IMG/VR virus record: IMGVR_UViG_3300009152_000030
Location: 32,001-96,000 of that record
Length of the DNA stretch: 64,000 bases
From: a virus
Strand: one strand, 5' to 3'
The notes beneath the pieces are model-generated. The model searched no databases. It saw only the letters and a program-made list of their open reading frames with translations, and was not told the origin of the DNA. This document shows, in pieces, positions 7,606 through 25,165 of this stretch (the stretch's first letter is position 1; every line of letters begins with the position of its first letter). A program made the position numbers and the translations under genes.

Positions 7606-7610
7606 GAGGA

Positions 7611-7853
7611 TTATACGAAGAAGCGACGGGCCGTATGCACTGCCTCGATAAGAGAATCAGAGCCAGTGTTGGCGTCGCTCTCGTACTTCTTCTCATCGAG
7701 ACGCTCATTGATGGCATCCCACGGGTCATAAGACTCATGGTTCACGTCATCCAGGCTCAGAGTCTCCTTCTGAACCTCTTCGAAACTATCAGTCAAGATC
7801 GTAGCAGCACTAAACAACATGATATACCTCTTTGCATTGGTAGACATTACCAA
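7611..7853 (-). CDS. Hypothetical acidic protein
   Basis: 80-aa ORF, co-directional with neighbours. Confidence 0.6.
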   Translation of the reverse strand: MVMSTNAKRYIMLFSAATILTDSFEEVQKETLSLDDVNHESYDPWDAINERLDEKKYESDANTGSDSLIEAVHTARRFFV

Positions 7854-7862
7854 TTCTCACCG

Positions 7863-7882
7863 AAAGAAGGGGCGATAGCCCC
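7863..7882 (-). terminator. Intrinsic terminator, copy 3
   Basis: GGGGCTATCGCCCCTTCTTT on minus strand. Confidence 0.75.
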
Positions 7883-8007
7883 TCAGGATTTGTACTGTAG
7901 CGGAGTGGGACCCATAATTATTTGGGCCTATTTTCACTCAGCTGGCCCAGGAGCCGAAACCCCCCGACGCCCGTTAGGGCGAAGGGGGGTTGAGCTGGAC
8001 CTGCGAC

Positions 8008-8430
8008 CTAGAAGGTGCCGTCGTCCGCAGTGGCCGTCTCGCGAAGCGCCGCAAGGGCCTCCGCAGCGGCATCTGCACCAGCGGATGAGGCCGCGGGAGC
8101 CGAAGCGCCAGCGGGGGAGCCAGTCTTGACGACGACGTTGGCGAGGATCTTGACGGCGAAGCCCTTGGAGCCATCCTTGCGGAGGAACTCTTCGTCTTCG
8201 GGGGTTCCGTCCACGAACACGGTGTCGCCCTTCTTGAGGATCTTCGCCATGTTCTCCGCGAGTGCGCCGAAGCACACGACGTCCCGCCACTTCACGACAG
8301 CGACGCCCTTGACCTTGCGGTTGACAGCGACGCGCATGGCGCAGATGGAAGTTCCCGACTGGCCCGTCAGGAGAATAGGGTCGGCTCCAAGGTTGCCGAC
8401 GACCTGAGTACGCTCAAAGCCCATGCTCAT
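8008..8430 (-). CDS. ssb: Single-stranded DNA-binding protein (SSB 2)
   Basis: VVGNLGADP, W.DVVCFGALAENMAKILKKGDTVFVDG, tail ending DDGTF; likely start ATG 8430 after GGAG. Confidence 0.88.
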   Translation of the reverse strand: MSMGFERTQVVGNLGADPILLTGQSGTSICAMRVAVNRKVKGVAVVKWRDVVCFGALAENMAKILKKGDTVFVDGTPEDEEFLRKDGSKGFAVKILANVVVKTGSPAGASAPAASSAGADAAAEALAALRETATADDGTF

Positions 8431-8549
8431 GGGTGCGCTCCAGTGTGGAGAGAAGGACCATCCCTCTCTCCGCACAAACAAGGGCCGTTAGGCCCTCTGG
8501 CGATCCATCTCGTTGGATCAACGGGAGCCAGGACATCTGGACTCCGCAG

Positions 8550-8569
8550 AAAGAAGGGGCGATAGCCCC
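8550..8569 (-). terminator. Intrinsic terminator, copy 4
   Basis: GGGGCTATCGCCCCTTCTTT on minus strand. Confidence 0.75.
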
Positions 8570-8668
8570 CGAGCGAAGCGAGCTCTACAAGCGAAGAACT
8601 AAGGAACAAACGGACGGCGCGAGCGAAGCGAGCGGCAGCGGAGTAATTGGACCTTTTTTGGATGAAAG

Positions 8669-8702
8669 AAAAAAATAGCCCACCCATGATGGGCAGGCTA
8701 TT
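8669..8702 (-). terminator. Intrinsic terminator of the long leftward operon
   Basis: AATAGCCTGCCCA-TCA-TGGGTGGGCTATT-TTTTT immediately after the 8705 stop. Confidence 0.8.
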
Positions 8703-8704
8703 CT

Positions 8705-8998
8705 CTAGTTATTGCCGTTCTTCTTTCTGTTTGCTTCTAGCATTTCCAGAAGACCGCGAGCCATCTTTGCATTGTGCTCATTCTCCTTTTGGGTAACCCA
8801 TTTTGGAGGAGGATCTTTGATGTCAAAGAAGATTTGAATTTCATGGCGAAGTACATAGTAACCTTTGTTGATACGTAAATCAACACAGATCACAACTTCT
8901 CCTGCTCCAACCAACGTCCCGTCCCATGCCCTAATAGTGCCGGTTGGCTTTGGTTTGCGGTTTGTTTCAATGATGTGGCCATTAAATGACTTTTTCAT
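8705..8998 (-). CDS. Hypothetical protein
   Basis: 97-aa ORF, AAGGA RBS, last gene before terminator. Confidence 0.7.
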   Translation of the reverse strand: MKKSFNGHIIETNRKPKPTGTIRAWDGTLVGAGEVVICVDLRINKGYYVLRHEIQIFFDIKDPPPKWVTQKENEHNAKMARGLLEMLEANRKKNGNN

Positions 8999-9033
8999 TG
9001 TTGCCTATTCCTTACGTGCAGTGTTATGTTCTG

Positions 9034-12000
9034 CTACTTCTTTGCAAGGTCGTTCGGGTTGATGATAATCATCGGACGATTGACCTTCTTGGCGTAGTTG
9101 ACACAGTTGGATGTGCCACTCGGAGAACCATCCCAGATTGCGACAACCGCCTCGCAGTTATCAACCATCCAGTAGTTCCGTGCGTGGAGACACTTCTCTT
9201 TGCCTGCAAGGTCGTAGCCTTTCTTATTGACAAGCACAACTTGATGAGCAAGAGCAAGCATCTTCTTGTAACGCATCTTAGCTTCGTCACCCTTGAAGTA
9301 ATCACCATGGTCGCTGCAAGGACGAGCCACGATGAACTTGAGGCCAAGCTTGTGAGCCTCACGTGCGGCATCAGTGTCAACGCCAAGAGCACCACCAGTA
9401 ACGACGATGATCTCACGAGTTGCACTGTACTTGGCAATGGCACGCTTTAATGCATCTGCGATTGCATTCTTTACAGCAACACGCAGAGGATGATTCTCGT
9501 CATAGCCGCCAATCTTTTCGGGGCGATGACCAGTGAATGCAATCCTGTAGGGCTTTGCTTCCACGGCAACAACAGGCACAGCAGGAGCAGGCTTGGCTTC
9601 AACAGCAGGAGCGTCAACCGGGACCCAATTGACATCTGCCATGTTCTTAGGCTGCCACTTGCCGTTGACCATTACAAGTTGTACAGGCTGTGCCGCAGTG
9701 TACGTGCCTTCAAGTACTTCACTGAAGATTTGAGTCTCAGACTCTTCCTCGTCACTGTCGTACTCGCTAGCATACTGCTCCAGCTCTTCAGCGCTGACTG
9801 GATTCTCAGAACCAAAGGCATCTTCAAAGTTGAAGTCTGCCATGCCTGCGCTCTCCAGCATCTTGTCGTAGTCGATATTCTCAGAGACAGAGATATCGAA
9901 GAACTCCTTCTCGGGAGGAGGCTCGGGCTTGACCGGCTCTTGACCCTTGAAGGTCAGCCAGACGAAGTTACGAGTGTAGGTCTTGCCGTTGGCACCATGA
10001 CCGTCACGCTTCTCCACTTCGCTTGCCTCAACGGTAGCACCGCTGAAGAAGTTGTTGAGAGTACCGTGGTAGCCCATCATGCCGGCAATCTGCCACTGAG
10101 TCTTGCCCTTGAAGGCACCGTTGTTCTCGAATGCCTTGCGCGTCTCGCTGGTCTTGCGGAAGACCAAGTAAGCAACTGCGGCGGCGCGATGGTCCTGGTC
10201 AGGGTTACCGCGCTGTCCACCGTATGCAAGCTGAATGCGGTTGTCGCTGAGGAGCTGCTGGATGTTGAGGCCAACAAGCGACTGAGGATCAACAGTCTTG
10301 CCATCCTTGCTCTCACGAATGAGGAAGGCGGCGCGAACGTCGGCAGCAAGAAGCTTATCCTGAGTCTTCTTCACGGCAGCATCCTCAAGGAACTTGCAGA
10401 GAACTTCTGCGTAGCCCTTGTAGTTACCGGTCGAGGCAAAGTACATCTTGCGGCTGTAACCACCGCTGGAGGTAAGCTCACCCTGCGCGTCGATGGCGTC
10501 AGAGTCGATGATCTTTGTCTTGTTGCCTTCTTCGTCATCAAGGAACTCGACCTTACCCTTGCCCATGGACAGAGTAATAGGCTTTTCCGCAGACGTACCG
10601 AGAGCGGACATCAGCTCAGAAAGCACGAACATTTCGTACTTGTACTCAGCCTTATCCTCGTAGACCTCTTCGAAGAGAGGCCAGAGATCCTCGTGACGTG
10701 CTGCGAAGGCTGCATGGATGGGCTTCTGAGCGTAAACCCGACGAAGGGTCTTGAGCTCTTCAGCGTTCATCATGTAGCGAACCTTGTCGATTTCCTCGTA
10801 ACGATGCTTCATTGCCTCAGGCACAGTCATCATGTGACCATTGTCCTGGCTGTAGCGATTGACCGCATGATACTTACGGAACATGAAGGAGCCGAAGGTC
10901 GTGAGATTGAACTCACCCTCGTATTGCTCCTGCTCATCCCGGTAGTGCTTGCTGATCAGCTCATCAAGCTCATGCGAGTGCTCTTCAAGGAACGCCTGAA
11001 GATTGGAGGTCAGGAGAGTAGCAGTCTGAGTGCTGTGACCCTCATCGATGAACGACTTGAGGTTCGAGGTCATCGTCTTCCAGTAGCGTGTGAAGCTGCG
11101 GATGATGGGATGCTCAACCTTGACAGACCGACCATCTGCCGTGACAACCGTCTGACGAAGGCTCTGGCAGATCTTAGCGGTCATCGGGATCTTGCCCTCT
11201 TCGTCCTTGAACAAGGCAGGAGCAATGATGTTCTCGCCCGTGATCTCGGAGATTTCTCCCGTGTAACGCACAGCAACAGGTGCAGTTACAAGCGAAAGAA
11301 GGCTGACACCAAGCCGCTTGCGCACAGGCTTAAGGGCCGTCATCTTGCTAGGCTTAGCATCGGGATTCTCACGCATCGCATTGCGGTCGTTGAGTACCCA
11401 GCTGACAGCAATCATCGTCATGATAGCGTCGATGTTGTGCCATGCACGCCAAGCGCCGGGGAAGTCAGTGCCGCTCTGAGCAGCATCGACCACCAGCGAG
11501 ATCTCACCTTCCATCATGCAAGCTGCAAGAAGGGCGGATGGAGTCTTGACTACCGACGGCAGAATGATCAGGTCAGCAAGCAGATAGCTGCCGAACATCT
11601 GAGCATTTGCCATTGCGCCAACGATGGGCATGAACTCGTTATCACCAGGAAGGTGAATCATGTCCCACTTCTCTTCAGCAGTCTTGTCGGCAACCGAAGG
11701 ATCTGCAGGCTGAGCCTTCTCAGCAAGGGCCGTAATGTTGTACTTGATCAAGCCAGAAGGCGAGACAGTCTCGACCGTCTTGACATCAAAGTACGACGAC
11801 AGCAGCTTGTGACCATTCGGAATGGTGTTCACAAGATCAAGCTTTTCAGGAAGCTTAGCAAGGAAGGTGTGTGCCTTCTCGTAAGTATCCTGGACCTGCT
11901 GAACGGTGAACTGGCTCAGCTTGTAGTTACGCAGGTTCATAGAACGCAGCGCAAGCAAGCCAAGCTTACCGCACAGGAAGAACGCCTTGTCGTCAGCGTC

Positions 12001-13437
12001 ACCGCCGTCCATGCTAACAAGGACAGCCTTCTGCATGATCTCCGTGCTGCCGAAGTATGCAGTAGCGTGCAGGAACATGTCGTCCTTAAGGACAACATAG
12101 ATAACCCGCACATCGACCTTAGCCGAAGTAGGCCAACGAGCCGCAGCGCCAAGGCTATCCCGATGGTTGACGGCAAGCTCCTTCTCGTTCTCACCCTTCA
12201 CATCATGGATGTTAAGAGCAGGAACGTTGAGGTTCTTCGCAGCTTCTGCCGTGATAGCAATTGCCGCAAATCCCGTCTTGGCAAGGATCTGTTCCGACTT
12301 GGCGTTGAACGCTTCCTCGATCTTTGCCTTGCGGTCAAGCTCAGCCATGATGAGAAGACGACGCTTCTTCAGGCCAGCGGTTTCGTTTGCAAAGGCACCC
12401 TGCTTCTCCTCATGGAGCCACAGGTCACGGAACATACGCCAGACAAGAGCGCGGGGATACGAGGTAAAGCCACAAGGGCCGTCCTTTGTAACCGCGTTGA
12501 TGCGAAGCTTGCTCTGCGTAACGTCTTCGCTGACACTGTTGACTAGAGTAGTCACAGTAGCAGGAATTGCGCCAGGGTGAACACCAAGGCTAAGAAGCAT
12601 CTTGGTGATCTTTGCCTTGAATGTTGAGGACGTTTCCGTTGCCTCAAGGACGTCGCCATCGAGACCCTTAAGGGCATTCTTGACGTAGTCATCCCAGTGC
12701 GAGATGTTCCAGTCAATCATCTCGTTGAGGATCGCATGGAACTTCGGGTCGTTGAGCACCTGACCAAACAGGGCGCTCAAGTTCTGGACGCCGAGAAGGA
12801 CACCAGGCTCAGACTTCATCTCACCAACGGTCGGCTGCACCATAAGCGCAACATCGGGAGAGAGATCAGGCTTGAGATCCTGCTTGCCTTCGGAGCTCAG
12901 CAGGAAGACATGGGGCGGAAGCCAAAGCTTGACCGCACCCATTGCGCCCTTATAGTACGCTTCGAGCTTAACCACACGGCGAACCTGCATGCCCTGCGTC
13001 ATGGGGCCAGGGGTGAGCTCTGCAGTGCCCATGTAGTGGACACCGTCCTGGATTGCCTTGTAGGCAGGATCCAAGTCAGCCATGTCTACAACCTTGCCAG
13101 TTGCAGATACGATGGCGCTGTAGGTGGCCGTCATCATGGAACGCGCATACTTGCGGCCCTTCTGAGCGGTCTTGCTGGTATACCCAACAGAACCCACAAG
13201 CTTTGCCTTCAGCGCCTTAGGCACCATCAGCGTCTCCATGCTGCTAACAGCAAAGAGGGCAACGTGACCGTCCGGGCATTTCTGCCCTTTCTCAACCACA
13301 GGGTGGTCGAGGAGGCTTTCAAAGCCCGGAAGATCGGAATAGGGGCTCTTAACCCCGGAATACTCGAGATGCTCTCGATAGCTACGGTACATAGTACCCT
13401 CCTTGTCAGTAACCAAAATGGTTACGTTCTGTTTCAT
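9034..13437 (-). CDS. Putative single-subunit two-barrel RNA polymerase (YonO/eukaryotic RdRP-like) fused to a C-terminal YspA/DUF1273 SLOG domain
   Basis: Ordered motifs QDGVHY (~13045), QVR...YYKG (~12950), RWPT (12127-12138), DGGDADD (11989-12009). SLOG: IAFTGHRP, TGGALGVD, RNYWMVD, WDGSPSGT. Likely start MKQNV (13437). Confidence 0.65.
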   Translation of the reverse strand: MKQNVTILVTDKEGTMYRSYREHLEYSGVKSPYSDLPGFESLLDHPVVEKGQKCPDGHVALFAVSSMETLMVPKALKAKLVGSVGYTSKTAQKGRKYARSMMTATYSAIVSATGKVVDMADLDPAYKAIQDGVHYMGTAELTPGPMTQGMQVRRVVKLEAYYKGAMGAVKLWLPPHVFLLSSEGKQDLKPDLSPDVALMVQPTVGEMKSEPGVLLGVQNLSALFGQVLNDPKFHAILNEMIDWNISHWDDYVKNALKGLDGDVLEATETSSTFKAKITKMLLSLGVHPGAIPATVTTLVNSVSEDVTQSKLRINAVTKDGPCGFTSYPRALVWRMFRDLWLHEEKQGAFANETAGLKKRRLLIMAELDRKAKIEEAFNAKSEQILAKTGFAAIAITAEAAKNLNVPALNIHDVKGENEKELAVNHRDSLGAAARWPTSAKVDVRVIYVVLKDDMFLHATAYFGSTEIMQKAVLVSMDGGDADDKAFFLCGKLGLLALRSMNLRNYKLSQFTVQQVQDTYEKAHTFLAKLPEKLDLVNTIPNGHKLLSSYFDVKTVETVSPSGLIKYNITALAEKAQPADPSVADKTAEEKWDMIHLPGDNEFMPIVGAMANAQMFGSYLLADLIILPSVVKTPSALLAACMMEGEISLVVDAAQSGTDFPGAWRAWHNIDAIMTMIAVSWVLNDRNAMRENPDAKPSKMTALKPVRKRLGVSLLSLVTAPVAVRYTGEISEITGENIIAPALFKDEEGKIPMTAKICQSLRQTVVTADGRSVKVEHPIIRSFTRYWKTMTSNLKSFIDEGHSTQTATLLTSNLQAFLEEHSHELDELISKHYRDEQEQYEGEFNLTTFGSFMFRKYHAVNRYSQDNGHMMTVPEAMKHRYEEIDKVRYMMNAEELKTLRRVYAQKPIHAAFAARHEDLWPLFEEVYEDKAEYKYEMFVLSELMSALGTSAEKPITLSMGKGKVEFLDDEEGNKTKIIDSDAIDAQGELTSSGGYSRKMYFASTGNYKGYAEVLCKFLEDAAVKKTQDKLLAADVRAAFLIRESKDGKTVDPQSLVGLNIQQLLSDNRIQLAYGGQRGNPDQDHRAAAVAYLVFRKTSETRKAFENNGAFKGKTQWQIAGMMGYHGTLNNFFSGATVEASEVEKRDGHGANGKTYTRNFVWLTFKGQEPVKPEPPPEKEFFDISVSENIDYDKMLESAGMADFNFEDAFGSENPVSAEELEQYASEYDSDEEESETQIFSEVLEGTYTAAQPVQLVMVNGKWQPKNMADVNWVPVDAPAVEAKPAPAVPVVAVEAKPYRIAFTGHRPEKIGGYDENHPLRVAVKNAIADALKRAIAKYSATREIIVVTGGALGVDTDAAREAHKLGLKFIVARPCSDHGDYFKGDEAKMRYKKMLALAHQVVLVNKKGYDLAGKEKCLHARNYWMVDNCEAVVAIWDGSPSGTSNCVNYAKKVNRPMIIINPNDLAKK

Positions 13438-13442
13438 GTTTT

Positions 13443-15419
13443 CTACCATTCGCCCATATCCATTGTAACAACAGGAAGAGTCGGAGCAACTACTGATACT
13501 GTCTCCATCTTGAAGCCAGAGTCCCAACCCTCACGAGTTGATGTATGCTTTGAGTTGCAGTCTGTGTAGTTAAGCATTGCACGTTCTTCGGCAGTCATCA
13601 TCCGATGAGGATTAGCTTTTGCAATCTCAGGATGAACCAACATAAAGCCGCACTTGGTCTTCATCCAGTCGTAACCGAAGTCGAAAAAGAGCTTTATCGC
13701 CAGATCTAGTCCGGCTAATTGCTTCCTAGACGAACCCTTCTTGTTGTCCGATACATCCGTCTGCACCATGGACAAACGAAGATTCATGTCGATTTTATCG
13801 AACATGTGAACCTGAGCTCGCAACTCAGAGTTTGCCATTGGTAGTTTTGTCTTCAGCGAGTAGACAGCACGCGAGGCTTTGCTTTCTTGAAGCTCTGCAT
13901 GGTACCGAGCCTTGAATTCCGGGAAAGACAGACCAGCAAGGTGCGGAAGCATCCCATATTCTGTTGTTTCCCACTTTTGACGATACTCGTCTTCGAAGTA
14001 CCCCCAATCCAAGTCCGGACGGTTGCAGTCAGTCCAAAGGGTACCACTCTGCTCATTCGCAAGATTATGCAAGTCATAAGCATACATACCATTACATTCA
14101 CTAGCTTTGAAAAGCTGCAGATACCGTAGCATATGATAATATGCTTGGCTCGTGCTGTCCACATTGGTCAGATAGAACCTTTGGTACCTTTTGTTCTGAG
14201 GTACAGCCTGTTCTACAAAGCCAGTTGCGGTTACCACAACACGATTAACGAGTTCGACTCTAAATACACCCTTGTCGCACAGGTATGTATTCCGAACTGC
14301 TCTTCCACAGGCAAGGTTTTGAATGCAAGTCTTACCAGTTTTTGACCAAGTAAGAACTTCCTCTCTTTTGCCAAAGTGAGCAATCTCGCCACTTTCGTAC
14401 ACGTCAGTGGTTTTTGCAAACTCTGTAATGCGTTCGATTTCCGATACCCATTCGTTATAGGTCATCTTCCGCATCTTGTACCAGGACGTAAGGATCATTC
14501 TGATCCACTTCTCTTCAGGGCCATTGGGGTTGAGTTTGGCCTCTCCAAACACCTGCTTGGCAAGTTGCTCTTCTTGGCCATCCCAGCGGTTTTCATTGCC
14601 AAAGCCCCAGTCAGAGACACCACCGCCAGCAGTCAGGACAAAGCCAAACGAGAACTTATTCCCGTTGCCATCGGTGCCCGTCTTGGCATCTACTGTTTTA
14701 TCAACAATATAGCCGTGGTATTGTCCAGACTTCATCTGCTGTTGATAGGTGCCACCACCAACGCAGAAGTGCCCCTTGTAGCGTGAATTGATGCTCTTGC
14801 ATTCATCCCACGCCTGCTGGGGATCAACCCAGCGGAAGTAATACGTCTCCTTGTTGAAGAGAGCCGTTACTTCACAGGTCTTGAGGGATGCCTCGCCGAT
14901 GACCGCGCCCAGGAACTTGACAGACAAGCTATTCACAAGCTCAACTGTGCTAGTGTACCGATTGCGAACAACGTGCCATTCGGCAGCTGACCATGTTTCA
15001 ATACAATTCTTCTTCTTGGCCAGCTTGGCAATGTCCTGGAAGAAGGTCTCCCAGGTAGGCTCATGAGTAACCTCCTTGAACCAGGCCATCATTTCCTTAT
15101 TGGCAAGGAGGATACTGGCAAACTTGTTGAATGCCGCAACATTCATGACCTTTACCTTGATCACCTTGGTCCGGCCCGTCGGCGGCGACCACTTAACCTG
15201 ACGCTCAGAGCCAAAGCACCGAATGCGGTACATGTCAACTCCCTGCTCCTTTAGAGCAATGATGCGCTTACGCACACTCATCAGGTTTGACAGCGAGAAC
15301 CCAGGCATTTCAGGCTGGATCTCATTGGCAATATATTGCCGCTGTTCGAGACGCATTTGCTTGGCCTTCATAAGGGCCTCCTTCTGTTCGGTGGTCATGT
15401 TTTTGGTCATCTTACTCAT
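13443..15419 (-). CDS. Hypothetical protein with divergent PcfJ-like domain; paralog of 21285-23444
   Basis: WDECKSINSRYKGHFCVGGG...HGY...FGFVLT..GGVSDWGFGNENR shared with the 21285-23444 protein. Confidence 0.6.
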   Translation of the reverse strand: MSKMTKNMTTEQKEALMKAKQMRLEQRQYIANEIQPEMPGFSLSNLMSVRKRIIALKEQGVDMYRIRCFGSERQVKWSPPTGRTKVIKVKVMNVAAFNKFASILLANKEMMAWFKEVTHEPTWETFFQDIAKLAKKKNCIETWSAAEWHVVRNRYTSTVELVNSLSVKFLGAVIGEASLKTCEVTALFNKETYYFRWVDPQQAWDECKSINSRYKGHFCVGGGTYQQQMKSGQYHGYIVDKTVDAKTGTDGNGNKFSFGFVLTAGGGVSDWGFGNENRWDGQEEQLAKQVFGEAKLNPNGPEEKWIRMILTSWYKMRKMTYNEWVSEIERITEFAKTTDVYESGEIAHFGKREEVLTWSKTGKTCIQNLACGRAVRNTYLCDKGVFRVELVNRVVVTATGFVEQAVPQNKRYQRFYLTNVDSTSQAYYHMLRYLQLFKASECNGMYAYDLHNLANEQSGTLWTDCNRPDLDWGYFEDEYRQKWETTEYGMLPHLAGLSFPEFKARYHAELQESKASRAVYSLKTKLPMANSELRAQVHMFDKIDMNLRLSMVQTDVSDNKKGSSRKQLAGLDLAIKLFFDFGYDWMKTKCGFMLVHPEIAKANPHRMMTAEERAMLNYTDCNSKHTSTREGWDSGFKMETVSVVAPTLPVVTMDMGEW

Positions 15420-17854
15420 TGATTTACCCCCTTTGCCACTTTGGCACAGTTAACAATTCCATGATTAATCTTCCGGCTAACTTGGATGTCATTGCGCAGT
15501 TCGGTCTTCTTACCGATCACTACGTCAATGAACAAGTCAGCAGCCTGTTCAATCGTGAGCGCTGTAGGCGCAGGATTGACCGCAGGAAGCAACTCGAACA
15601 GTCGCAGAAGCAAGGAAGGACGCGGCTCTGCGTCGGCCATAGGCACAGTTGCAACCACAGGCTTGCGGAACTTGGCCACAGCCTTGAGGTCAGACATGGT
15701 CACCTGGGCATGCTCACGTGCAGGCGCAGCAGGTCGACCGAACTTCACCACAGCGATCTCCTTCCGGAGGTTGTGAGGAAGCGAGACGAACGAACAGCCG
15801 GTGCCCAGACGGGGCTTGGCGGGTGCGTTGGCGGGTGCGTTGACGGCAGGCTTGACCTCAGCCTTGGGAGCGGCCTCAGGCTTGGTCATGACGACCATAA
15901 CCTTGGCAGCAGCAGGCTTAGCAGTCGGCGCAACCGTGGTGACCGTCGTGATGCCAGCCTTGGCCTTGATCACGGCCTTGACCTTTGCCTTTGCCTTCGC
16001 AGCCTTGGCCTTGCGAGTTGCCGCCTTGGCGCTCTTGGCAGCGCGAGCCTCCGAGAGCTCCTGTGCCTTGCGTGCAGCGATTGCAGCGCGGATTGCCGTG
16101 ACCTTGGCCTTGACGGCCTTCTTCTCGGCGTCCACCTTGGCGAGGACTGCAGCCTGTGCAGCCTTTACCTCGGCTTCGACAGCAAGACGCGCAGCCTTGG
16201 CAGTGGCACTCTGGTTGGCGATCTGGGCAGGGTTCTGATCAGCCCAGCGCACCCCGACCTCATTGACGTTCCAAAAACGGCAGAAGGAGCTGAGCCGTGC
16301 GGCAGCAGCACGACGAGCGGTGCGAACGGTCTTGTCGAGGGTCTTGACCCCCGTGTTCGCCGAACGAGGCCCGAATGCTGCCTTGACGAGGCGGGTGGCA
16401 TCCAAGTAGTCGTTGTTACGGACGACCTTGACCTTTGCGGCGCTCTTGACCACAGGCTTTGCCACGAACGGCTTGGCCTGTGCACGAAGGATGGGAAGCT
16501 CGTTGCGCTTGGCCTTAGCCTTGCGCTGAGCAACCTCGATCTTCACCGCAGTCTCGGGGCGAGTGTAGCGGTTGGCGCGGTTTGCCTTCTTGGCGAGCAG
16601 CTTCCGAAGGGCAGTGCCAGGTCGATTGTTCGCCGGCCCCGTTGCTTTCTCTTTCTGGCGCTGACCAATGAGGCCAATCGACCAGCCGCCGACGTGACCG
16701 CTCTTGCGGCCACCCCCAACCTTGTAGCTCTCGGTGTAGATGTATTGGACCTCGGGGCGGGGGACCGACACGCCGTGGAAGCGGATGCCGGCACGCTTGC
16801 GCCAGAGGTGAAGGAGGCGACGGCGAGACCGGCGGGACATACGAGACTGACGCATGACGAGATCCTTTGGAGGACGGGGGGATTTGGACTTGTTACGCAT
16901 GACGATATCCTTGGGTGGACGGGACTTCTTGTTCTTCATGGGGCGCTCCGTGTAGTGCGGGTTTCCGGTGTCGCTGATGCCACACATTGCGGCAATCTTG
17001 ACATCGTGGGTAAGCATGCGGATGAGTGCGTCGAGCGCGATCTTCATTGCCATTGTAGTCTCCAGTGGCGGTGGGGGTGTTGGTTCAGGTTGGTTCACAA
17101 TCTCACTCATCTTGTCCTCCTCTAGCACATAGACACAACCAGGACCACCTTTTTTGGCATCCCAGTCAATAAGGCGCACATGATCCCAAGAGCATTGCCC
17201 CTGAGGAATCTTTGAACGACGAGTATGACCAACAATAGCAAGCCCGTGCTTACCCTTGTAATCTTTGGCCCAGAAGTTATCAGGGTCAGTGTTATCAACA
17301 AGCTCGATCTGGGCTGCAGTCGGCTTACCTTTGACAAACCTAGGAGGCAATTTACCAGCTGGAAGTTTGGCATGGACAGCCGTCCAGGTTGTGTCCTTGA
17401 CCCATAGAGGCCGAGAGCGCAACCAGACCATATCGTCCTCCGTAAGTAGAGCACGAAGCTTGCACCACTCATTCCAGATGCGTACATAGTCTTCGTCTGC
17501 CAGGTTATAGTGCAGGCTCCAAGCCTTTGTCAATTCTTCCTGGCTATTGCCAAAGAAGAGAGGATACAGCTCATGGTTGCCCAAGATGAGCTCCGAGCCA
17601 GAGGCACGAATGATGTCAAGGCAATCCTTGGCACCCTGTGCGCCACCTTCCCCATCGAAGATATCTCCGAGGAAGATAATGTCTCTGCCGTTTGCCATCT
17701 CAATGGCAGAAGTGACGAGAGAGGGACGTGCGTGAATATCGCCAACGAAAACCTTTTCCATTTTAATCTCCTTGGTAGGCCTATCAATCTTCATATCATT
17801 CATTGGAACAACCTTTGTAATAGTACAAATAGATACATTCATTTGCTTATCCAT
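15416..17854 (-). CDS. Calcineurin-like (PPP) metallophosphoesterase fused to a long Lys/Arg/Ala-rich histone-H1-like region
   Basis: GDIH, GDIFD, GNHE, VHA, GHT motifs in the first ~255 aa; then very basic AK-rich low-complexity sequence; start ATG 17854 (GGAG) or 17761 (AAGGAG). Confidence 0.8.
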   Translation of the reverse strand: MDKQMNVSICTITKVVPMNDMKIDRPTKEIKMEKVFVGDIHARPSLVTSAIEMANGRDIIFLGDIFDGEGGAQGAKDCLDIIRASGSELILGNHELYPLFFGNSQEELTKAWSLHYNLADEDYVRIWNEWCKLRALLTEDDMVWLRSRPLWVKDTTWTAVHAKLPAGKLPPRFVKGKPTAAQIELVDNTDPDNFWAKDYKGKHGLAIVGHTRRSKIPQGQCSWDHVRLIDWDAKKGGPGCVYVLEEDKMSEIVNQPEPTPPPPLETTMAMKIALDALIRMLTHDVKIAAMCGISDTGNPHYTERPMKNKKSRPPKDIVMRNKSKSPRPPKDLVMRQSRMSRRSRRRLLHLWRKRAGIRFHGVSVPRPEVQYIYTESYKVGGGRKSGHVGGWSIGLIGQRQKEKATGPANNRPGTALRKLLAKKANRANRYTRPETAVKIEVAQRKAKAKRNELPILRAQAKPFVAKPVVKSAAKVKVVRNNDYLDATRLVKAAFGPRSANTGVKTLDKTVRTARRAAAARLSSFCRFWNVNEVGVRWADQNPAQIANQSATAKAARLAVEAEVKAAQAAVLAKVDAEKKAVKAKVTAIRAAIAARKAQELSEARAAKSAKAATRKAKAAKAKAKVKAVIKAKAGITTVTTVAPTAKPAAAKVMVVMTKPEAAPKAEVKPAVNAPANAPAKPRLGTGCSFVSLPHNLRKEIAVVKFGRPAAPAREHAQVTMSDLKAVAKFRKPVVATVPMADAEPRPSLLLRLFELLPAVNPAPTALTIEQAADLFIDVVIGKKTELRNDIQVSRKINHGIVNCAKVAKGVNQ

Positions 17855-17871
17855 GACGTTCTCCCTAGGCA

Positions 17872-18042
17872 CTAGTGGATACGCCGGCCAATGCGGCCGA
17901 TGCGGGAGTGACGGAAACGGCGAGCCACTGCCTTCTTGACAGCAGCCTTTTCAATAGCCTTGGCCTCAGCGTTAGCTGCAACCTTGGCGGTCATCTCCCC
18001 CTTAATAAGGAGGAAAATTAGGACAAACAGGACGACAATCAT
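17872..18042 (-). CDS. Small membrane-anchored basic peptide (56 aa; not in ORF track)
   Basis: MIVVLFVLIFLLIKGEMTAKVAANAEAKAIEKAAVKKAVARRFRHSRIGRIGRRIH*; fills the gap between two coupled genes. Confidence 0.55.
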   Translation of the reverse strand: MIVVLFVLIFLLIKGEMTAKVAANAEAKAIEKAAVKKAVARRFRHSRIGRIGRRIH

Positions 18043-18043
18043 G

Positions 18044-19138
18044 TTACTTCTCCCAGTTGCTGATAGTCTCCTGCCCGTATTTAAGCAGGAACTGTTGATA
18101 AAGGTCCTTGTACCATTCCATGTTTTCCTTGGCGTAAGCCAGGTTTACCGTATCCTTGCTGCGGTCCAAGCTACCCCAGCAGTCAGTTTGGCCAATGTAC
18201 AAGGCATCATTGTACTTGACTTGAAAGTCTTCAGCATCACCTGTGCCAAGGGCTTGGCGCTGAGGGCTTTCCGCATAAGATACGAAGCCAATCACTTCAT
18301 CGCCGGCCATCAAAGGCCCACCAGAGTCACCATGGTCAGGAGAAACTTCAAGGCTGAGGCTGGCAGCACAGATAAAGCGTTGGTTGCTAGCGCCTGCAAT
18401 GTACCTCTTGTAGGTATCAACAAGATTCTTGAAGATAACCTCGGGGCTTTTCAGACTTACATCCTCAAGTGCTTTTCTGGCATCAATGAATGCCCATCTC
18501 ATGTCATTCTGCTCTTTCATGCTAGGCGTACCCTTCTTCATGTGGTCAAAGACCTGCTCAAAAGGCACATAACCCCACATGTCTGTGGTCTTACCCCACC
18601 AACGGAAGTCAGTGCTGCACTCAAGACCAATCTCATAGAGATCTTCCTTGATTTCGTTAGGATAATGGTCAGCCGGCACAACGATATCGCCAGCGTTTTC
18701 ACGGTAACCGTTACGTGTGCAGTGCTCTGCCGTGTAGATCTTACCTTTCCACTTCCATGCAGTGCAGTTCCCGCTCTCATCAAGGGGGCCTTCATTTTCC
18801 CTGGTGTTGACAGGACCAATTCCAGGGTGGATGTTGTTCTCTGCCCGGTACTTCTCTTCCAGGAATTCTTCCACTTCCTGAACAACCTCGTAATAGTCGC
18901 TGTTAGCAACCCACTCTGCCTGACGGATTTCCTCCTTCCGTGCCGCAGCAGCTTCTTCCTGGCGAAGGCGGGTGTTATTACCCGTCATGGTCACAAAGAT
19001 ACCAGCAAAGGCTGCAAAGATTGCAACCATTGCCAGCACAAAGAGGATGTTCTCGCGGCGGTCTGCCTTCTTCATCTTGTCCTCCCTCTCACGGTACGCC
19101 TTAAGCTCGGCCTGTTGCATTTCTTCCCAGTTGTCCAT
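18044..19138 (-). CDS. Membrane-anchored trypsin-like (S1/PA clan) serine protease 1
   Basis: TM helix ILFVLAMVAIFAAFAGIFV; GNCTAW...YTAEHC and GDSGGPL...IGFVS; start ATG 19138 (AAGGAG) or 19195. Confidence 0.75.
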   Translation of the reverse strand: MDNWEEMQQAELKAYREREDKMKKADRRENILFVLAMVAIFAAFAGIFVTMTGNNTRLRQEEAAAARKEEIRQAEWVANSDYYEVVQEVEEFLEEKYRAENNIHPGIGPVNTRENEGPLDESGNCTAWKWKGKIYTAEHCTRNGYRENAGDIVVPADHYPNEIKEDLYEIGLECSTDFRWWGKTTDMWGYVPFEQVFDHMKKGTPSMKEQNDMRWAFIDARKALEDVSLKSPEVIFKNLVDTYKRYIAGASNQRFICAASLSLEVSPDHGDSGGPLMAGDEVIGFVSYAESPQRQALGTGDAEDFQVKYNDALYIGQTDCWGSLDRSKDTVNLAYAKENMEWYKDLYQQFLLKYGQETISNWEK

Positions 19139-19187
19139 GACCTTCTCCTTGTTTGTTGAGTTAGCAGCAATGTCTAGAACAGTAACG

Positions 19188-20531
19188 TTATTCATGAGTC
19201 CACCCCAGCATTTCAATGATGTCAAAGACATTCGTGTAATCGCTAAAGATATCCGAGTAGCTTGACGCCATTTCATCAATGAACGGCGATGCAACCGGCT
19301 TATTGTCAACCATAGCAAAGCAAGAGACCTGATAGTTGCTATGAGCTTCCGGATAGAAGTCATCAAACATCTGGTTGTCGGTCCGAACGAAAAACGAGAC
19401 ACTACCAATGACTTCGTCACCAAGCATGATGGGGCCACCAGAGTCACCCTTCTTGATGCTATCTTCCGCCACAGAAGAAGCACAGAGATACTCTTGGCTT
19501 GTGTAGTGCTCTTTGATGTACTTCAACTGGTTGTAGAATTTGTTGAACGCTGCATGTGCTTTTTCTTTTGCTTTCTTCGTATTATCGCTATTAGTCTTCA
19601 TGCTGTTCTCTTCGATTGTGTACTTGTAATCGTTAAGAGCGGCAATAGCCTTATACTTAGAGTCAATAAGCTCTTGTTGCATTTCGTAAGGAGCACCAAG
19701 ATAGTTTCTTGTCTTCTTGAAGATCTGCTCCATAGGAATAGTTACCCACTTATTGGTGGTTGTGCCCCACCAGCGGATATCAGGGCTGCACTCTGTACCT
19801 TCCTTGTAGAAGTCACCAGAGATAGTGTTATCGGCTGTTGACTGCTGGACGCGGTCTGTGTTGCCGTGCTTTTCCAGGTAGTCATTGCAGTGCTGGATGG
19901 TGTAGGTCTTACCGTTCCATTTCCATGCGCTGCAGGTGCCGTACAGAACTTCACCGTCCTTGTATACAGGAGACTCAATTTTGCCATAGGCCTTAGCAGT
20001 ATTATCAACCTGCTCATAATTAGTAACAGCATTAGCGGTCGACTGCGCATTTTCAATCTCAGGCTTAGCATCGGTACCGCAAGCCGTAGTGATTACGAGG
20101 AGAAGGAAGGTTGCAATCTTTGCCATCATTTCCGCATAGTTAGCTTTCACAAGAGCCTCGTTAACCTTCAGATTATGGAAGGCGTTGGTTGCAAGTGCAA
20201 TGCTGCGCACATCGTCATGGTACTCAACGTGGATGAGGATATCAATGGCAGTAAATGCCAAGGGGGCAAGTGCGAGAGTGCACACGACCATATCCTGGAA
20301 CGTAGCCACAAGGGCGTAGGGAATGAAGAGAGCTGCAGTGCAGACAATGCTGAACGCAAGCCCAATGGACCTCTTGCTAACGACAAGCATGACGGACTCC
20401 TTGTTGGCAACAAACTTGTTCATGACAGACCCCTTCCAGACAGCGGTGATGATAGCCAGGATGGCAAAAATGACGAATGCAATTGACATAGCAGACTCCT
20501 TGTTGACGACAGAATTGTCGATGGTGTTCAT
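19188..20531 (-). CDS. Membrane-anchored trypsin-like serine protease 2 (paralog)
   Basis: Several N-terminal TM helices, lipobox-like LLLVITTAC, GTCSAW...YTIQHC and GDSGGPI...IGSVS. Confidence 0.75.
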   Translation of the reverse strand: MNTIDNSVVNKESAMSIAFVIFAILAIITAVWKGSVMNKFVANKESVMLVVSKRSIGLAFSIVCTAALFIPYALVATFQDMVVCTLALAPLAFTAIDILIHVEYHDDVRSIALATNAFHNLKVNEALVKANYAEMMAKIATFLLLVITTACGTDAKPEIENAQSTANAVTNYEQVDNTAKAYGKIESPVYKDGEVLYGTCSAWKWNGKTYTIQHCNDYLEKHGNTDRVQQSTADNTISGDFYKEGTECSPDIRWWGTTTNKWVTIPMEQIFKKTRNYLGAPYEMQQELIDSKYKAIAALNDYKYTIEENSMKTNSDNTKKAKEKAHAAFNKFYNQLKYIKEHYTSQEYLCASSVAEDSIKKGDSGGPIMLGDEVIGSVSFFVRTDNQMFDDFYPEAHSNYQVSCFAMVDNKPVASPFIDEMASSYSDIFSDYTNVFDIIEMLGWTHE

Positions 20532-21280
20532 TAGTACACCTTTACGATTTCGCAGGCGAAAAGGTCGATAAAGTCAAAGTTGTCATCCTTTGTGCCAATG
20601 GAACGGTTGCGAGCGAGGCTATAGTCGTCGCAAAGACCAAAGCGCTGAGCGTACCCTTCGAACAGGTAGTCACCGACGCGAGAACAAGCAGGACAACCGC
20701 CTTCCCAGTCAAGTCCAGTCGGCTTCCAGTCGCGAAAAGGAGGAGACTTTCTGATTTCTCGTGCAAGCATAATTTCAGGCTTGTAGATTTCAACTGCATA
20801 GTTGACCTCAACAATCCACTCATGCTTGATACCTTCAGAGCAGATCAGGCCGTTGTCGTTGTCCATCATAAGCTCAGCAAGCTCACGAAAGATAACAGGG
20901 TCATTGCAACGATCAAGATTGAACTTAATCGGGAATCCTTCCTTCATGACTTTGATAGTGGAGATCGGAACGTCCGCGATTACCTGTACAGCACTCGAAG
21001 AGTGCTTCTTGGTAATGTATGCAGCCCAGAAAGCATCCAGATTGGCATTTGCCGGAACAGCCCAAGTGCCCATCACTTTCTTTCCTTCCGGGTGAAGGTG
21101 ATTGGTGACTTCCATTGCGGGAACGCCATCCTTAGCAATGATGTCGCCAAAGTTAGGCGCAGTCCAGTGAATAACACGCATAGTCTTCATGGTTTCCTCC
21201 ATCTTAGCCGAAACGGCGATTTCTTCAGTAATCTTATTCATGACGTTCACCTTGTTGGTGTTGAGGGTGTTGATTTTCAT
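20531..21280 (-). CDS. Hypothetical protein, possible ADP-ribosyltransferase-like fold plus CxxC
   Basis: IHWT....IAKDG..., GTWA, HEWIV and C-terminal CPAC; the ART call is weak pattern matching. Confidence 0.4.
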   Translation of the reverse strand: MKINTLNTNKVNVMNKITEEIAVSAKMEETMKTMRVIHWTAPNFGDIIAKDGVPAMEVTNHLHPEGKKVMGTWAVPANANLDAFWAAYITKKHSSSAVQVIADVPISTIKVMKEGFPIKFNLDRCNDPVIFRELAELMMDNDNGLICSEGIKHEWIVEVNYAVEIYKPEIMLAREIRKSPPFRDWKPTGLDWEGGCPACSRVGDYLFEGYAQRFGLCDDYSLARNRSIGTKDDNFDFIDLFACEIVKVY

Positions 21281-21284
21281 TGTA

Positions 21285-23444
21285 TTACCAGACATCGTTG
21301 TAGCTATCGGCAGCAAGCTTAGCCTTGATCTGCGCCACAACATGGTTGATATTGAATTCACGCTGGATAAACCAGGTGTTAGAGATTTTCATGGCCTCAA
21401 TCTGACCCGGGGTCTTCTTGGTCTCCGAGCTTTCGCCGTCACCAAACATACCAATCAGAATAGGACGGTGCTTGCTACTGCGGTTGTTATCGCCCATACC
21501 GAAGTCAACAACACCAGCACTGTTCGTAAGGATAACGCCAAAGTTATCCCATTCGCCGTTGATCTGGATGTCTGCAATCCAGGGGATATTCGTACCATTG
21601 AGGAACTTCTCCTGGTAGTAACCATGGCTCTGCTGAGTGCCATGACCGGTGCAGAACTTACCCGTGTACTTGCTGTTGATCTGCTGAGACTCATTCCACA
21701 TACCAGCGGCATCCGTACGACGAATACGAAGAACCTGATCGTAGCCAGCAGCAAGAATCTTCTCAACCTGCTCAGTGTCAGCTACGTCACAGCTCTTGAA
21801 TTCTTTGCTACCAAACTTGAAGCCAACAACAACGTCAGTCGTAAGCTTGCAGATTGCAACTTCCTCAAGAGCAAAGATAGGCATCAAGTCTTCCTTGAGC
21901 TGCTTGACCTTGTTATAGCGCTGAGCATAAGTCTTCCACTGATTAGCCTTCCAGAGGTTTTTCTCAGCATTCATTTCTTTGCTGCACCAGAAGTTTTCCT
22001 CAGTCTTCATTGCATGCATTTCGTCAGCAAAAGCAGCGTCTTTGCTCATAGCAACGAGCAAACCACCTGTTGCCGCGTCATTAAGCGGCAAGCACCAGCG
22101 GCTAAAGAATTGAATGGTCTTCTTCTCAATGAGCAACTTTGCCGCTTGCCACTCAGCCTTCGTGAGAATACGATAGGCCTGCCAGTTGTAACCATGCTGC
22201 CAATTTGTTTGGCAGATAAAGTGGTAGTATTCATTTTCGCTATTTCTCATGGCTTTTTCGAGAGCGCGAGCAAATTCTGAGAACTTGATGGCCAAATTGT
22301 TATAGGCCGCAGCATTACGATTGCTTTCGTCAACGTTAGCCAGCATTAGCCAGTACGAACGGATGCCTTGAATACTAGCATTCTTGTAGAAGAAACTGTA
22401 GTCCGCAGACTCTTGAAGATTCTTTTCAGCCTTGATAAAGGACTCAAAAGTAATCTCTTCCTTGAGTTGCGTATCAAACATAGTCCAGAGGGCATTAATA
22501 TCGGTAGCGTTTTCGATCGATTTGATAAAGTCCTGGTACTTCATCGTCTCTGCGCTCTGCTTACAGCCAAGTTCTGCTTGCATCTCAAGATTTTTGCGCT
22601 GTCTTTCTGCGATTTCAAGGGAAAGCCGGGCATTGCGTGCAATTCGCTGAGCTTCGCGCTCTTCCTCCTGGCGGCACCACGCCTCATGCTCAGCAGCTTC
22701 ACGCTCAAGACGAGCAATGCGCTCTGCCTGATCCAACGCCTGCTGACGCGCATATGCAATGTTACGCTCACGACGCTCCATCATGTAGAAGGCGTCATGC
22801 ATGCGCTGCTGCTCACTCTCAGCAGCCATCTTGCGCACTTGCTTAGCAAGCTTATCAGTCTTCTGCTTGTTCTCATACCAGAACATAGCAACAACTGCAG
22901 CAATCATTGCGACAACCATGGCAATCAACGCGATAACAATCATGATCCTATCCTGAGTCATGTTTGCACTAGCAATGGCCAACACAGGTACAATACTAAA
23001 CATCTTATTCTCCTCGTTCTTCATGACATCCTCTTCATTAACGTCGGAATTGACGTTGTTATTGACATCCTTCTTAACCCAAGCCTGCTGTGCAGCAAAG
23101 GCCATGATAGCCTCCATGCTAGCAGTGCTCATCACAGGCATCTCGCTGTCATCCTCGTACAGGGCCTCAATCTCAGCCTCAAACTGCGCATCTTCGGTAA
23201 CATCACTGTACACCGGGTGATTATTATTGAGGTCAACCTCATACTCATTCGTATACTGAATCTTATTCGACATGGCGTCCACCTCGTTATCAGCCTGGTA
23301 GCTGGGGTTATTGCTATTGAAAAGAACGTTGATCAGGCTAGTCATGACAGTCACCTTGTTGTTGCTATGAGTGTTATTATTCATAGTCTTGTTATTGATG
23401 ATGGTGTTGGTGATGGTGGTAGGGGTTTGTGCGAGCGTGCACAT
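21285..23444 (-). CDS. Membrane-anchored coiled-coil protein with C-terminal divergent PcfJ-like domain
   Basis: TM IMIVIALIAMVVAMIAAVVAMFW, coiled coil, then WNESQQINSKYTGKFCTGHG..HGY...FGVILT..GVVDFGMGDNNR; start uncertain. Confidence 0.65.
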   Translation of the reverse strand: MCTLAQTPTTITNTIINNKTMNNNTHSNNKVTVMTSLINVLFNSNNPSYQADNEVDAMSNKIQYTNEYEVDLNNNHPVYSDVTEDAQFEAEIEALYEDDSEMPVMSTASMEAIMAFAAQQAWVKKDVNNNVNSDVNEEDVMKNEENKMFSIVPVLAIASANMTQDRIMIVIALIAMVVAMIAAVVAMFWYENKQKTDKLAKQVRKMAAESEQQRMHDAFYMMERRERNIAYARQQALDQAERIARLEREAAEHEAWCRQEEEREAQRIARNARLSLEIAERQRKNLEMQAELGCKQSAETMKYQDFIKSIENATDINALWTMFDTQLKEEITFESFIKAEKNLQESADYSFFYKNASIQGIRSYWLMLANVDESNRNAAAYNNLAIKFSEFARALEKAMRNSENEYYHFICQTNWQHGYNWQAYRILTKAEWQAAKLLIEKKTIQFFSRWCLPLNDAATGGLLVAMSKDAAFADEMHAMKTEENFWCSKEMNAEKNLWKANQWKTYAQRYNKVKQLKEDLMPIFALEEVAICKLTTDVVVGFKFGSKEFKSCDVADTEQVEKILAAGYDQVLRIRRTDAAGMWNESQQINSKYTGKFCTGHGTQQSHGYYQEKFLNGTNIPWIADIQINGEWDNFGVILTNSAGVVDFGMGDNNRSSKHRPILIGMFGDGESSETKKTPGQIEAMKISNTWFIQREFNINHVVAQIKAKLAADSYNDVW

Positions 23445-23480
23445 GGCGTTCCTTACTGCCCTTGTGGGGGCGATGTCCAA

Positions 23481-23839
23481 AGCTAGCGGAATCGCTAGCA
23501 GTTGGTGAGAGTTGGAAAGACCCTCATCCCTTAGTACATAGTCTTAAAAGGGGGTGGGCTAAAAACGAATAGGGTATGGGTAAGTATAGGGGCCCAGGAG
23601 TATAAGTACCCGCTCTTTTCCGAAAAAAAAATATATATATAAATAGAGGCTGTACCTATACCTTAATACTTGGCCTTTCACTCTTTTCTATAAAAAATAT
23701 ATATAAATATATAAAAATATATATAAAGGCCTTTTGCCCTAAGCCTATGACCCTTTCCCCCTCACGTAGTTCTTTTTCCCATGTATAGCGTTTCTTATGG
23801 TTTCTTATGGTATCAAGTTAGTAAAGTTTAAACTTTAGT
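23481..23839. promoter_or_regulatory. Divergence region between the two arms (promoters and/or origin candidate)
   Basis: Non-coding; hairpin GCTAGCG-GAAT-CGCTAGC (23482-23499); AT/TATATA tracts 23623-23645 and 23688-23727; tandem TTTCTTATGG x2 (23791-23810). Confidence 0.55.
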
Positions 23840-25165
23840 TTGATTACTAGTAAGAAGAATTCTGTTTTGGCTCATTACAATGATATAAACAAGGCTAATA
23901 GGAATAAACCTAGATCCTCACACGACAACAGTGCAGGGCGTGGAGCCGATAATCCCTATAAGAATGCACCGCGTTTAGAGAACCCTACTTATACTGGTAC
24001 TATGACTGGACAAGTTATAGATCCTTATACATTGTCTAGTAAGCTATCTAATAGATTGGAGTTCTCCTCAAAGGAGGAAGGGATGCCTTTTGATTTAAAT
24101 GCATTAGAGGAAAATGTAGACATTAGTTCTAGTGCTAAGGGACTACCTACTAGGCAAATGGAAATATCTGAGGATAAAGCCTTTGATAAGACCTCACCCC
24201 TCCTGAAAGACTCTAGTATGATTTCAGGTAATAGAAATGCTAATGGTCTCGGCGGCGTGGAGGCTAATACCCAAGTTCTACTTGACAGAGTAGGTGAGCT
24301 TTTAGATAACGATGAAACACTATTGGAAAGAGTTGAGCCCCTTGATAATACTTCTTCTACTAGTATTAGCTTACGTGATGCTTTTCAAAGTGCCTTAGAT
24401 AGTAGTGATCTTGGCACTGTAGATGCTGCTAACTTTTTTTCTAATAGTAGTTTAGGGGCGTTTCTTGGTAGTGACCCTGATTTATATAGAGACTTACATA
24501 TAACACCTCAGAGTGCTGCTAGAATGAGGTCGCATCTTGCCGCTGTTAAGCATGGAACTTATGCTAGTGTACCCTTAATCTGTAAAGGCTATGAGAGTTG
24601 TCCAATCCGTAGTTCTTGTTGGTTTGCTGTTAAGAGAGATAACGGTAGTGTTGATCTTGCTGCTAGTAAATTCCCCTTGCTTCAACCTTGCCCCGTAGAA
24701 GCAAGTATTCTTCAGGTTAAGGTTAAGCAATACTGTAGTGAAAACTTTCATAATTTAAATTACATTACTCCTACTATTGTTAGCTTAGCTACTAAGTTGG
24801 CTGAGTTAGATATCTATGAGATTCGAGTTAATATGCTATTAAGTCAAGGTGATAGCCTTGGTGAAGGTCGAGACCTAATGCAGGAAGCCGTACTAAGCAA
24901 TGATATGCATGGTAATCCTGTTAAGACTGCGATGAAGGAACATCCTGCCTTTGCATTGAAAGAGCGTTTTCAGAAAATGCGTAGTCAACTAATGAAGGAG
25001 CTATTAAGTACCCCAGAAGCCAAGCTAAATGCCAGAGCAAAGATAGAAGCTACTAAGGCTGAGAGCGTTAGTTCAACTATGACAAAAATGTCTGCTGCAT
25101 TAAGCAAGATTAATAGTTTAATAAGGGATAATACTGTAGATCCAATGGACTTTGACGATGACTAA
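23840..25165 (+). CDS. Putative terminase small subunit
   Basis: First gene of the morphogenesis arm; HG.YA.VPLICKG...CP...C...PCPVE cysteine cluster followed by helical EHPA...LLSTPE region. Confidence 0.45.
   Translation: MITSKKNSVLAHYNDINKANRNKPRSSHDNSAGRGADNPYKNAPRLENPTYTGTMTGQVIDPYTLSSKLSNRLEFSSKEEGMPFDLNALEENVDISSSAKGLPTRQMEISEDKAFDKTSPLLKDSSMISGNRNANGLGGVEANTQVLLDRVGELLDNDETLLERVEPLDNTSSTSISLRDAFQSALDSSDLGTVDAANFFSNSSLGAFLGSDPDLYRDLHITPQSAARMRSHLAAVKHGTYASVPLICKGYESCPIRSSCWFAVKRDNGSVDLAASKFPLLQPCPVEASILQVKVKQYCSENFHNLNYITPTIVSLATKLAELDIYEIRVNMLLSQGDSLGEGRDLMQEAVLSNDMHGNPVKTAMKEHPAFALKERFQKMRSQLMKELLSTPEAKLNARAKIEATKAESVSSTMTKMSAALSKINSLIRDNTVDPMDFDDD

Follow-up and report, generated by a model that had tools for sequence, protein, structure and literature searches.

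In-frame start ladders in a GC-rich island of an uncultured phage are probably stacks of exchangeable translation-initiation cassettes

Phage genes in which an in-frame internal start yields a shorter product include T7 gene 4A/4B, lambda S107/S105, and lambda C/Nu3, and dual starts are also familiar from holin/antiholin genes. In two-polypeptide endolysin genes, an internal Shine-Dalgarno (SD) sequence together with an in-frame ATG gives rise to an N-terminally shorter product (PMC9430671), and internal starts have been mapped by retapamulin Ribo-seq (bioRxiv 10.1101/520783). The internal starts in these cases are single and fixed, and their products have been shown. Here, we analyze a 64,000-nucleotide (nt) window, bases 32001–96000 of the 174,117-bp contig of an uncultured phage (IMG/VR record IMGVR_UViG_3300009152_000030), in which neighboring genes begin with ladders of in-frame, SD-led ATGs. 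These ladders resemble the nested genes in that an internal in-frame start codon follows an SD at functional spacing. They differ in that each gene offers 2–7 candidate starts, eight neighboring genes are involved, the units are interchangeable, and the starts are known from sequence. Our preferred reading, which we consider probable, is that exchangeable translation-initiation cassettes have been stacked to form the ladders.

By analogy, the nearest counterparts in function would be the promoter-early stem-loop (PeSL) elements, mobile regulatory cassettes of T4-type phages (Arbiol et al. 2010, PMC2839356; PMC4122927). PeSLs consist of an intergenic sigma-70 early promoter and a stem-loop terminator, and form mini-circles by recombination between neighboring units (PMC2839356; PMC4122927). 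Both systems comprise short conserved units that recur where non-essential early genes of a variable region adjoin one another; by recombining, the units insert, delete, and replace genes among close relatives, and the joints fall at the units here too. The units of the present phage, however, contain an SD and an ATG instead of the promoter and terminator of a PeSL. They are translation-initiation regions bounded by start codons and located inside reading frames, and they are frame-neutral, stack, and leave in-frame start ladders. The nearest counterparts in position appear to be the start-associated sequences (SAS and ESAS) of Cluster K mycobacteriophages (Pope et al. 2011, PMC3203893), of which we take the motif found here to be an analogue and not a member. 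As characterized in passages of that paper, SAS are like our motif in being conserved, asymmetric sequences that place an SD core a few bases (3–8 nt for SAS) before mostly ATG starts, in one orientation, limited to non-structural genes and found nowhere else in the genome. The 13-bp SAS consensus GGGATAGGAGCCC differs from the AACAAGGWGnnnGTC found here, and the same passages do not mention in-frame nesting inside open reading frames (ORFs) or recombination joints. Stackable, frame-neutral, start-codon-bounded initiation cassettes that leave in-frame start ladders were not found as such in the literature searched.

The phage is contractile-tailed (large terminase, 37107–39245; sheath, 54440–57514), and the genes of its right arm have ordinary AGGAG-type ribosome-binding sites, which indicates that its host reads SD sequences. 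The ladders were traced in six genes, all of which lie within a GC-rich island of approximately 20 kb (window ~4000–24000, genome 36–56 kb), where GC content is 0.46–0.57 compared with ~0.38 for the genome and codon usage (AAG/GAG) is unlike that of the rest of the genome. Transcription of the island proceeds on the minus strand, the strand of every ladder feature described below, and heads away from a divergent region at 23480–23840. The six genes encode a membrane protein of 686–731 amino acids (aa; 21285–23444), a product of 219–246 aa, two membrane-anchored trypsin-like proteases (protease 2 and protease 1), a 56-aa transmembrane (TM) peptide, and a metallophosphatase to which a long, basic, Lys/Ala-rich tail is fused. 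We compared this region with nine related contigs (L001/L003, L002/L004, L005–L008, L010, L011, and L012), all of which carry the island with differing gene content; its GC content in these relatives is 0.49–0.52. Beyond these contigs, a megablast search of the region against deposited phages returned no match, an exact-pattern scan of viral contigs for one of the leader units (cassette B, below) gave 0 matches, and a metagenome contig scan for another (cassette A) found just one further L001-like contig.

Inspection of the gene starts revealed a common architecture. A leader cassette spans 33–102 nt and consists of an ATG at the upstream stop codon, a stretch poor in G and rich in A and C, either AAGGWG or GAGGAG, a spacer of 6 nt that often reads nnnGTC, and a second ATG. 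The motif reads AACAAGGWGnnnGTC. Each unit runs from ATG to ATG, has a length that is a multiple of 3, and contains no stop codon. The motif and its leader units occur at eight consecutive minus-strand gene starts that form a tightly abutted chain, and they occur in the island only. In every downstream gene of the chain, one start codon overlaps the preceding stop or lies no more than 4 nt from it, and a strong SD-led ATG follows 6–33 codons further in the same frame; this rule extends to two genes outside the set of six (15419/15371 and 13449/13392). Cassettes stand singly, doubled, or tripled before a conserved body. Cassette A (21239..21280) begins with an ATG 4 nt past the stop at 21285–21287 and continues through an A/C-rich stretch, AAGGTG, and 6 nt to ATG 21241. 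Cassette D (21188..21241) follows directly and ends at the SD-led ATG 21190, where the conserved 219-aa body begins. The first ATG of cassette C (20487..20531) overlaps the upstream stop (TAATG), and that of cassette B (19136..19195) overlaps the stop of protease 2 (ATGAATAA); both cassettes end with AACAAGGAG, 6 nt, and an ATG (20489 and 19138, respectively).

Comparison of the relatives shows that the cassettes are recombination joints that have been swapped and stacked. Sequence identity is 92–97% up to the last ATG of a cassette and drops to 38–57% right after it, where another gene follows. At the junction marked by cassette A, the 60 nt before ATG 21241 are 92–95% identical in all loci (the 3' end of the upstream gene is 79–80% identical), and in loci with another gene downstream the 60 nt past it are 47–57% identical. 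Behind the 56-aa gene, the junction shows the same behavior, with 95% identity up to ATG 17854 and 38–57% after it in L002 and L006. The joints read (G/C)TC-ATG-AAY in all cases. Past cassette A, at least five alternatives are found, depending on the locus: cassette D with the 219-aa body, a protease with a lipoprotein signal peptide, a protease with a Sec signal peptide, cassette B with one body, and cassettes B and D with yet another. In two of the alternative genes, the signal peptide begins exactly at the motif ATG, which identifies ATG 21241 as a true start.

The other cassettes travel similarly. In the window, cassette B leads into protease 1; in L008, L010, and L011, it stands behind cassette A before unrelated bodies. 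L008 has cassettes A and B followed by an unrelated 136-aa body, and L010 has the order A, B, D and then another body. In other loci, the allele of cassette B before protease 1 is 6 nt shorter. The 219-aa body carries cassette D in the window, L001, L002, and L006 and a different 5-codon head in L005, and its cassette D follows either cassette A (window and L002) or a protease stop (L006). L010 also has cassette D in front of an unrelated body, L002 has a D-like unit in front of another, and L005 joins the opening codons of cassette B to cassette C. Recombined units thus occur in five or more arrangements. Throughout, the codon before the ATG varies among relatives (Val, Ile, Leu, Thr, or Ala), and the SD and ATG stay. 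The sequence-only reading that preceded this work had offered, among other options, that the genes grew by accreting initiation cassettes. This proposal is borne out, as leader units recur in new combinations before unrelated bodies with joints exactly at ATGs. As a separate observation, a small body containing "...RIDKW..." occupies three slots with three leader combinations (L006, 5177–5638; L008, 2581–2991; L002, 5885–6385).

Six insertions or deletions (indels) were observed, and all six are multiples of 3 (33, 27, 6, 3, 3, and 3 nt), with none out of frame; the chance of this outcome without a frame constraint is about 0.001. The largest is an in-frame deletion in L005 between two AACAAG repeats of the first-gene leader, the 27-nt deletion removes sequence in frame from TM1 of protease 2 in L008, and the 6-nt indel corresponds to the two cassette B alleles. 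Together with the location of SD+ATG sites in weakly folded mRNA, this uniformity leads us to conclude that the reading frame appears to be kept by selection.

The 20 nested starts singled out by the sequence-only reading are all in-frame minus-strand ATGs with a purine-rich SD-like core upstream. We counted such pairs in the seven longest ORFs of 13443–23480, accepting an SD core at 4–10 nt spacing. In-frame ATGs with a 4-mer core number 25 and those with a 5-mer core number 19. Shuffling codon order predicts 9.95 and 4.89, respectively (z = 5.0 and 6.7; 0/500 shuffles reach the observed counts), whereas shuffling synonymous codons predicts 18.6 and 13.0 (z about 3), which indicates that the choice of codons creates more SD matches than the peptide sequence demands. 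In a stricter test, annotated starts were moved to the motif ATGs and shuffling was confined to 15-codon blocks; the counts of 22 and 16 compare with 10.1 and 5.4 expected, and none of 1000 shuffles was as high. SD-bearing ATGs make up 21.6% in frame and 5–7% out of frame. SD-like sequences are generally depleted inside bacterial coding regions (PMC5100845), a rule that the rest of the phage genome obeys, with 10 in-frame pairs observed in the right arm versus about 20 expected; the island does the opposite (22–25 versus 10) and is thus an exception to the usual depletion. The remaining high-GC genes of the same arm are neutral, showing no enrichment. Genome-wide, 24/118 internal Met codons of the island have an SD, compared with 45/948 in the other 99 ORFs, and half of the genome's strong in-frame SD+ATG pairs fall within these 10 kb.

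The position and strength of the sites fit active starts. SD 4-mers start at offsets −12 to −8 in 13, 9, 11, 10, and 7 cases, compared with about 2 per offset elsewhere, and this peak is seen only for in-frame ATGs of island genes. The sites cluster in the first 140 codons (14/38 Met versus 8/69; p = 0.003). The string GG-N5-GTCATG occurs in 9 copies on the minus strand between 15146 and 23345 and in 0 copies elsewhere in the 174,117 bp on either strand; AAGGNG-6 nt-ATG occurs 7 times on the minus strand of the window and once on the plus strand, always in frame with real genes. The calculated anti-SD duplex is −8 kcal/mol or stronger at 9 internal sites (the median for real right-arm starts is −6.5), and local mRNA folds are weaker at internal SD+ATG sites (GC-adjusted +1.8 kcal/mol, p = 0.004) and weaker still at motif starts (+4.1 kcal/mol). 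Leaders contain 11.9% G compared with 26.5% in gene bodies, and they vary freely in protein sequence yet keep their G-poor composition. Such a pattern is the mark of an unstructured ribosome landing site and not of a folded peptide.

In the relatives, recombination between units has moved gene bodies among slots and concatenated units, so that genes carry one, two, or three units before a conserved body. For translation, these results suggest a model in which ribosomes that re-initiate at the upstream stop would use the first ATG and SD-loading ribosomes a later one, and all routes would end in one and the same protein, which may or may not carry a short extension rich in Asn and Thr. As frame-neutral units, the cassettes would leave each stacked SD+ATG a productive start; because a strong out-of-frame start would interfere, selection would hold the stacks in frame. 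Each gene therefore probably has several usable starts, as far as can be judged from sequence. Most of the extra steps would be tolerated by-products of shuffling that possibly raise the initiation rate, and a few at domain borders (before TM segments, at 17761, and at 17110) could give truly different shorter proteins. The model provides a concrete sequence-level mechanism by which phage early genes may be shuffled without loss of expression: what is exchanged is the region of translation initiation itself, whose frame-neutrality makes stacking harmless. The island also offers a natural test bed, with at least 20 candidate sites in 10 kb, for the usage of strong internal SD+ATG pairs.

Several points weigh against this model. 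The use of multiple starts per gene is inferred from the sequence. The relatives are close (46–100% protein identity, with leaders nearly identical), so conservation of internal sites carries little weight alone, and the six indels are few events that come from the same close relatives. Finally, no swapping was seen in the ladders at 23273–22943 and 17110–16855, which may have arisen from local duplication or may be peptide features that resemble SD+ATG. In L010 and L011, the former ladder indeed seems to have grown through "EEDxM" units duplicated locally. One could also speculate that the cassettes are an adaptive plug-in, whereby recombination would splice any incoming ORF into the translationally coupled early operon for immediate expression, and the ladders would make membrane proteins with alternative N-termini or topologies. 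Two modes of expression would then be available, one in which ribosomes re-initiate at the upstream stop and one in which they initiate independently at an SD. We regard this extension as possible but put it forward only tentatively.

A different explanation for the ladders is that the nested starts were themselves selected, such that shorter and longer proteins do different jobs, for example with or without the acidic N-terminal domain, the first TM helix, or the phosphatase domain. Nested N-terminal isoforms are plausible from what can be read in these genes: several strong sites coincide with domain borders (23003 and 19075 are located ahead of TM segments, 20423 and 20390 behind TM1, and 17761 and 17110 where the phosphatase domain begins and ends, respectively), sites are kept in all relatives, and the strength and spacing of the SDs, the weak mRNA structure, the choice of codons, and indels that preserve the frame fit active starts. 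A programmed ladder is, however, difficult to reconcile with the gain and loss of steps among close relatives that keep the gene, as in the TM1 deletion of L008, the body found with or without cassette D, and the 33-nt deletion of L005. These variants without individual steps argue that most steps are dispensable, and most extensions are short, of low complexity, and fast-changing in protein. We consider such a program unlikely as the origin of the ladders. It is very unlikely that the selected feature is a peptide, with N-K-E-x-V-M and E-E-D-x-M acting as protein motifs (cleavage sites for trypsin-like proteases or a targeting tag) and the SD+ATG appearance arising as a by-product of codons. 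The peptide pattern itself is enriched (18.6 for the synonymous shuffle versus 10 for the order shuffle), and the operon itself encodes two or three serine proteases that are anchored in the membrane. But codon choice supplies SD matches beyond the peptide requirement, the pre-Met residue varies freely while SD and ATG are kept, and signal peptides begin exactly at the motif ATG; moreover, the junction is conserved upstream of the first possible start and across the stop, which argues that it acts as a nucleotide sequence.

The sequence-only reading had also raised the possibility that stacked sites capture ribosomes during takeover or simply boost translation, whatever the product. Many strong SDs indeed lie in unstructured, G-poor RNA at 5' ends, but the enrichment is confined to the coding frame, for which a sponge has no need, and just about 25 sites are present in 10 kb; the idea thus found no support and strikes us as highly improbable. 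We give almost no credence to chance or composition, according to which Lys/Glu/Asp/Met-rich N-termini encoded with AAG and GAG would yield accidental SD-like strings. The island does prefer these codons and its N-termini are rich in Met (4.5% versus 2.9%), but this account was rejected by the shuffles, which failed to reach the observed counts even within 15-codon blocks (0/1000), and by the sharpness of the peak between −12 and −8; furthermore, no enrichment is seen in the arm's other high-GC genes. Internal promoters were likewise considered and are unsupported because promoter-like sites are not enriched: a sigma-70 scan found 12 promoter-like sites versus 10.6 expected, with none at units. 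A terminator scan found 12 terminator-like sites versus 11.1 expected, again with none at units.

The main starts are likely the motif ATGs 23345, 21241, 20489, 19138, and 17854, and the phosphatase domain most likely starts at 17761; the gene labels of the sequence-only reading were partly off in these respects. The leader of the first gene (23343..23444) contains the SD-led ATG 23444, ATG 23384, and the motif start 23345, which reads AACAAGGTGACTGTC-ATG, and only 7% of its bases are G. Upstream of ATG 23444, the sequence is kept in relatives beyond any start codon, and for this reason it is probably a promoter or 5' untranslated region element. The adjoining divergent intergenic region (23480–23840) contains AT-rich TATATA/T-run repeats, the direct repeat CCATAAGAAA in two copies, and a hairpin followed by a T-run at 23746–23727. 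Further into the first gene, a ladder in the acidic N-terminal domain (22941..23275) precedes a TM segment with ATGs at 23273, 23141, 23105, 23024, 23003, and 22943, of which four to five SD-led ATGs are kept in diverged relatives; L010 and L011 have extra "EEDxM"-type units within insertions. The name "PcfJ-like" previously attached to this gene (21285–23444) finds no support in Pfam, as no match to Pfam PcfJ was obtained at E up to 5. Its C-terminal domain (21285–22400) and the 658-aa gene (13443–15419), both on the minus strand, are paralogues (26% identity over 219 aa, E = 2e-15), and neither matches any Pfam family.

The gene of protease 2 (19188–20531) illustrates how the ladder misleads automatic annotation, which explains why gene callers disagree on its start: public calls give lengths of 447 (P0002), 433 (P0001/P0003), and 400 aa (P0005). 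Its first TM helix and the motif starts 20423 and 20390 lie at 20388..20489. At residues 134–151 or thereabouts (window approximately 20080–20130, minus strand), the protein contains an internal signal peptide of the lipoprotein type (Met-Ala-Lys, a hydrophobic run, and ..TAC) that aligns with the N-terminal signal peptides of the shorter homologues P0010–P0013. This alignment indicates that the multi-TM module of 120–134 aa is an add-on fused before a lipoprotein precursor. The module is near-identical in homologues whose protease domains share just 42–50% identity. No stand-alone 120-aa TM module was found among proteins of 66–210 aa, a length range that makes this evidence weak. In protease 1, for which the rows of L001 and L002 were left out of one alignment, a second step (19073..19138) places the SD-led ATG 19075, with a duplex of −11.4 kcal/mol, directly before the signal-anchor.

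The ATG at 17994, which the sequence-only reading had listed as a start in the small-peptide gene (17992..17994), is probably not a start; its SD abuts the ATG, the Met is replaced by Ile in all relatives, and the resemblance is probably due to chance. At the junction after the 56-aa peptide gene (17759..17874), GTG 17872 overlaps the stop and is followed by the motif ATG 17854, a 31-codon leader, and the SD-led ATG 17761, where the metallophosphatase domain begins. A ladder in the linker after this domain (16853..17112) comprises ATGs 17110, 17053, 16939, 16900, and 16855, all of which are kept in relatives; 16900 and 16855 represent one tandem peptide duplication. ATG 17110 combines the strongest SD of all (GAGGAGG, −12 kcal/mol) with a position where the phosphatase domain ends, which makes a separate C-terminal product from this site a fair guess. 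The C-terminal half of the fusion (window 15900–16250, minus strand) is a long Lys/Ala-rich, histone-H1-like basic tract that probably binds nucleic acid. In the leader of the 658-aa gene (15369..15419), ATG 15419 overlaps the stop (ATGA) and the SD-led ATG 15371 (−11.7 kcal/mol) follows 16 codons in. The leader of the RNA-polymerase-like/SLOG gene (13390..13449), which lies outside the six genes, has the same design: ATG 13449 abuts the stop (ATGGTAG), and the AAGGAGGG-led ATG 13392 is found 19 codons in.

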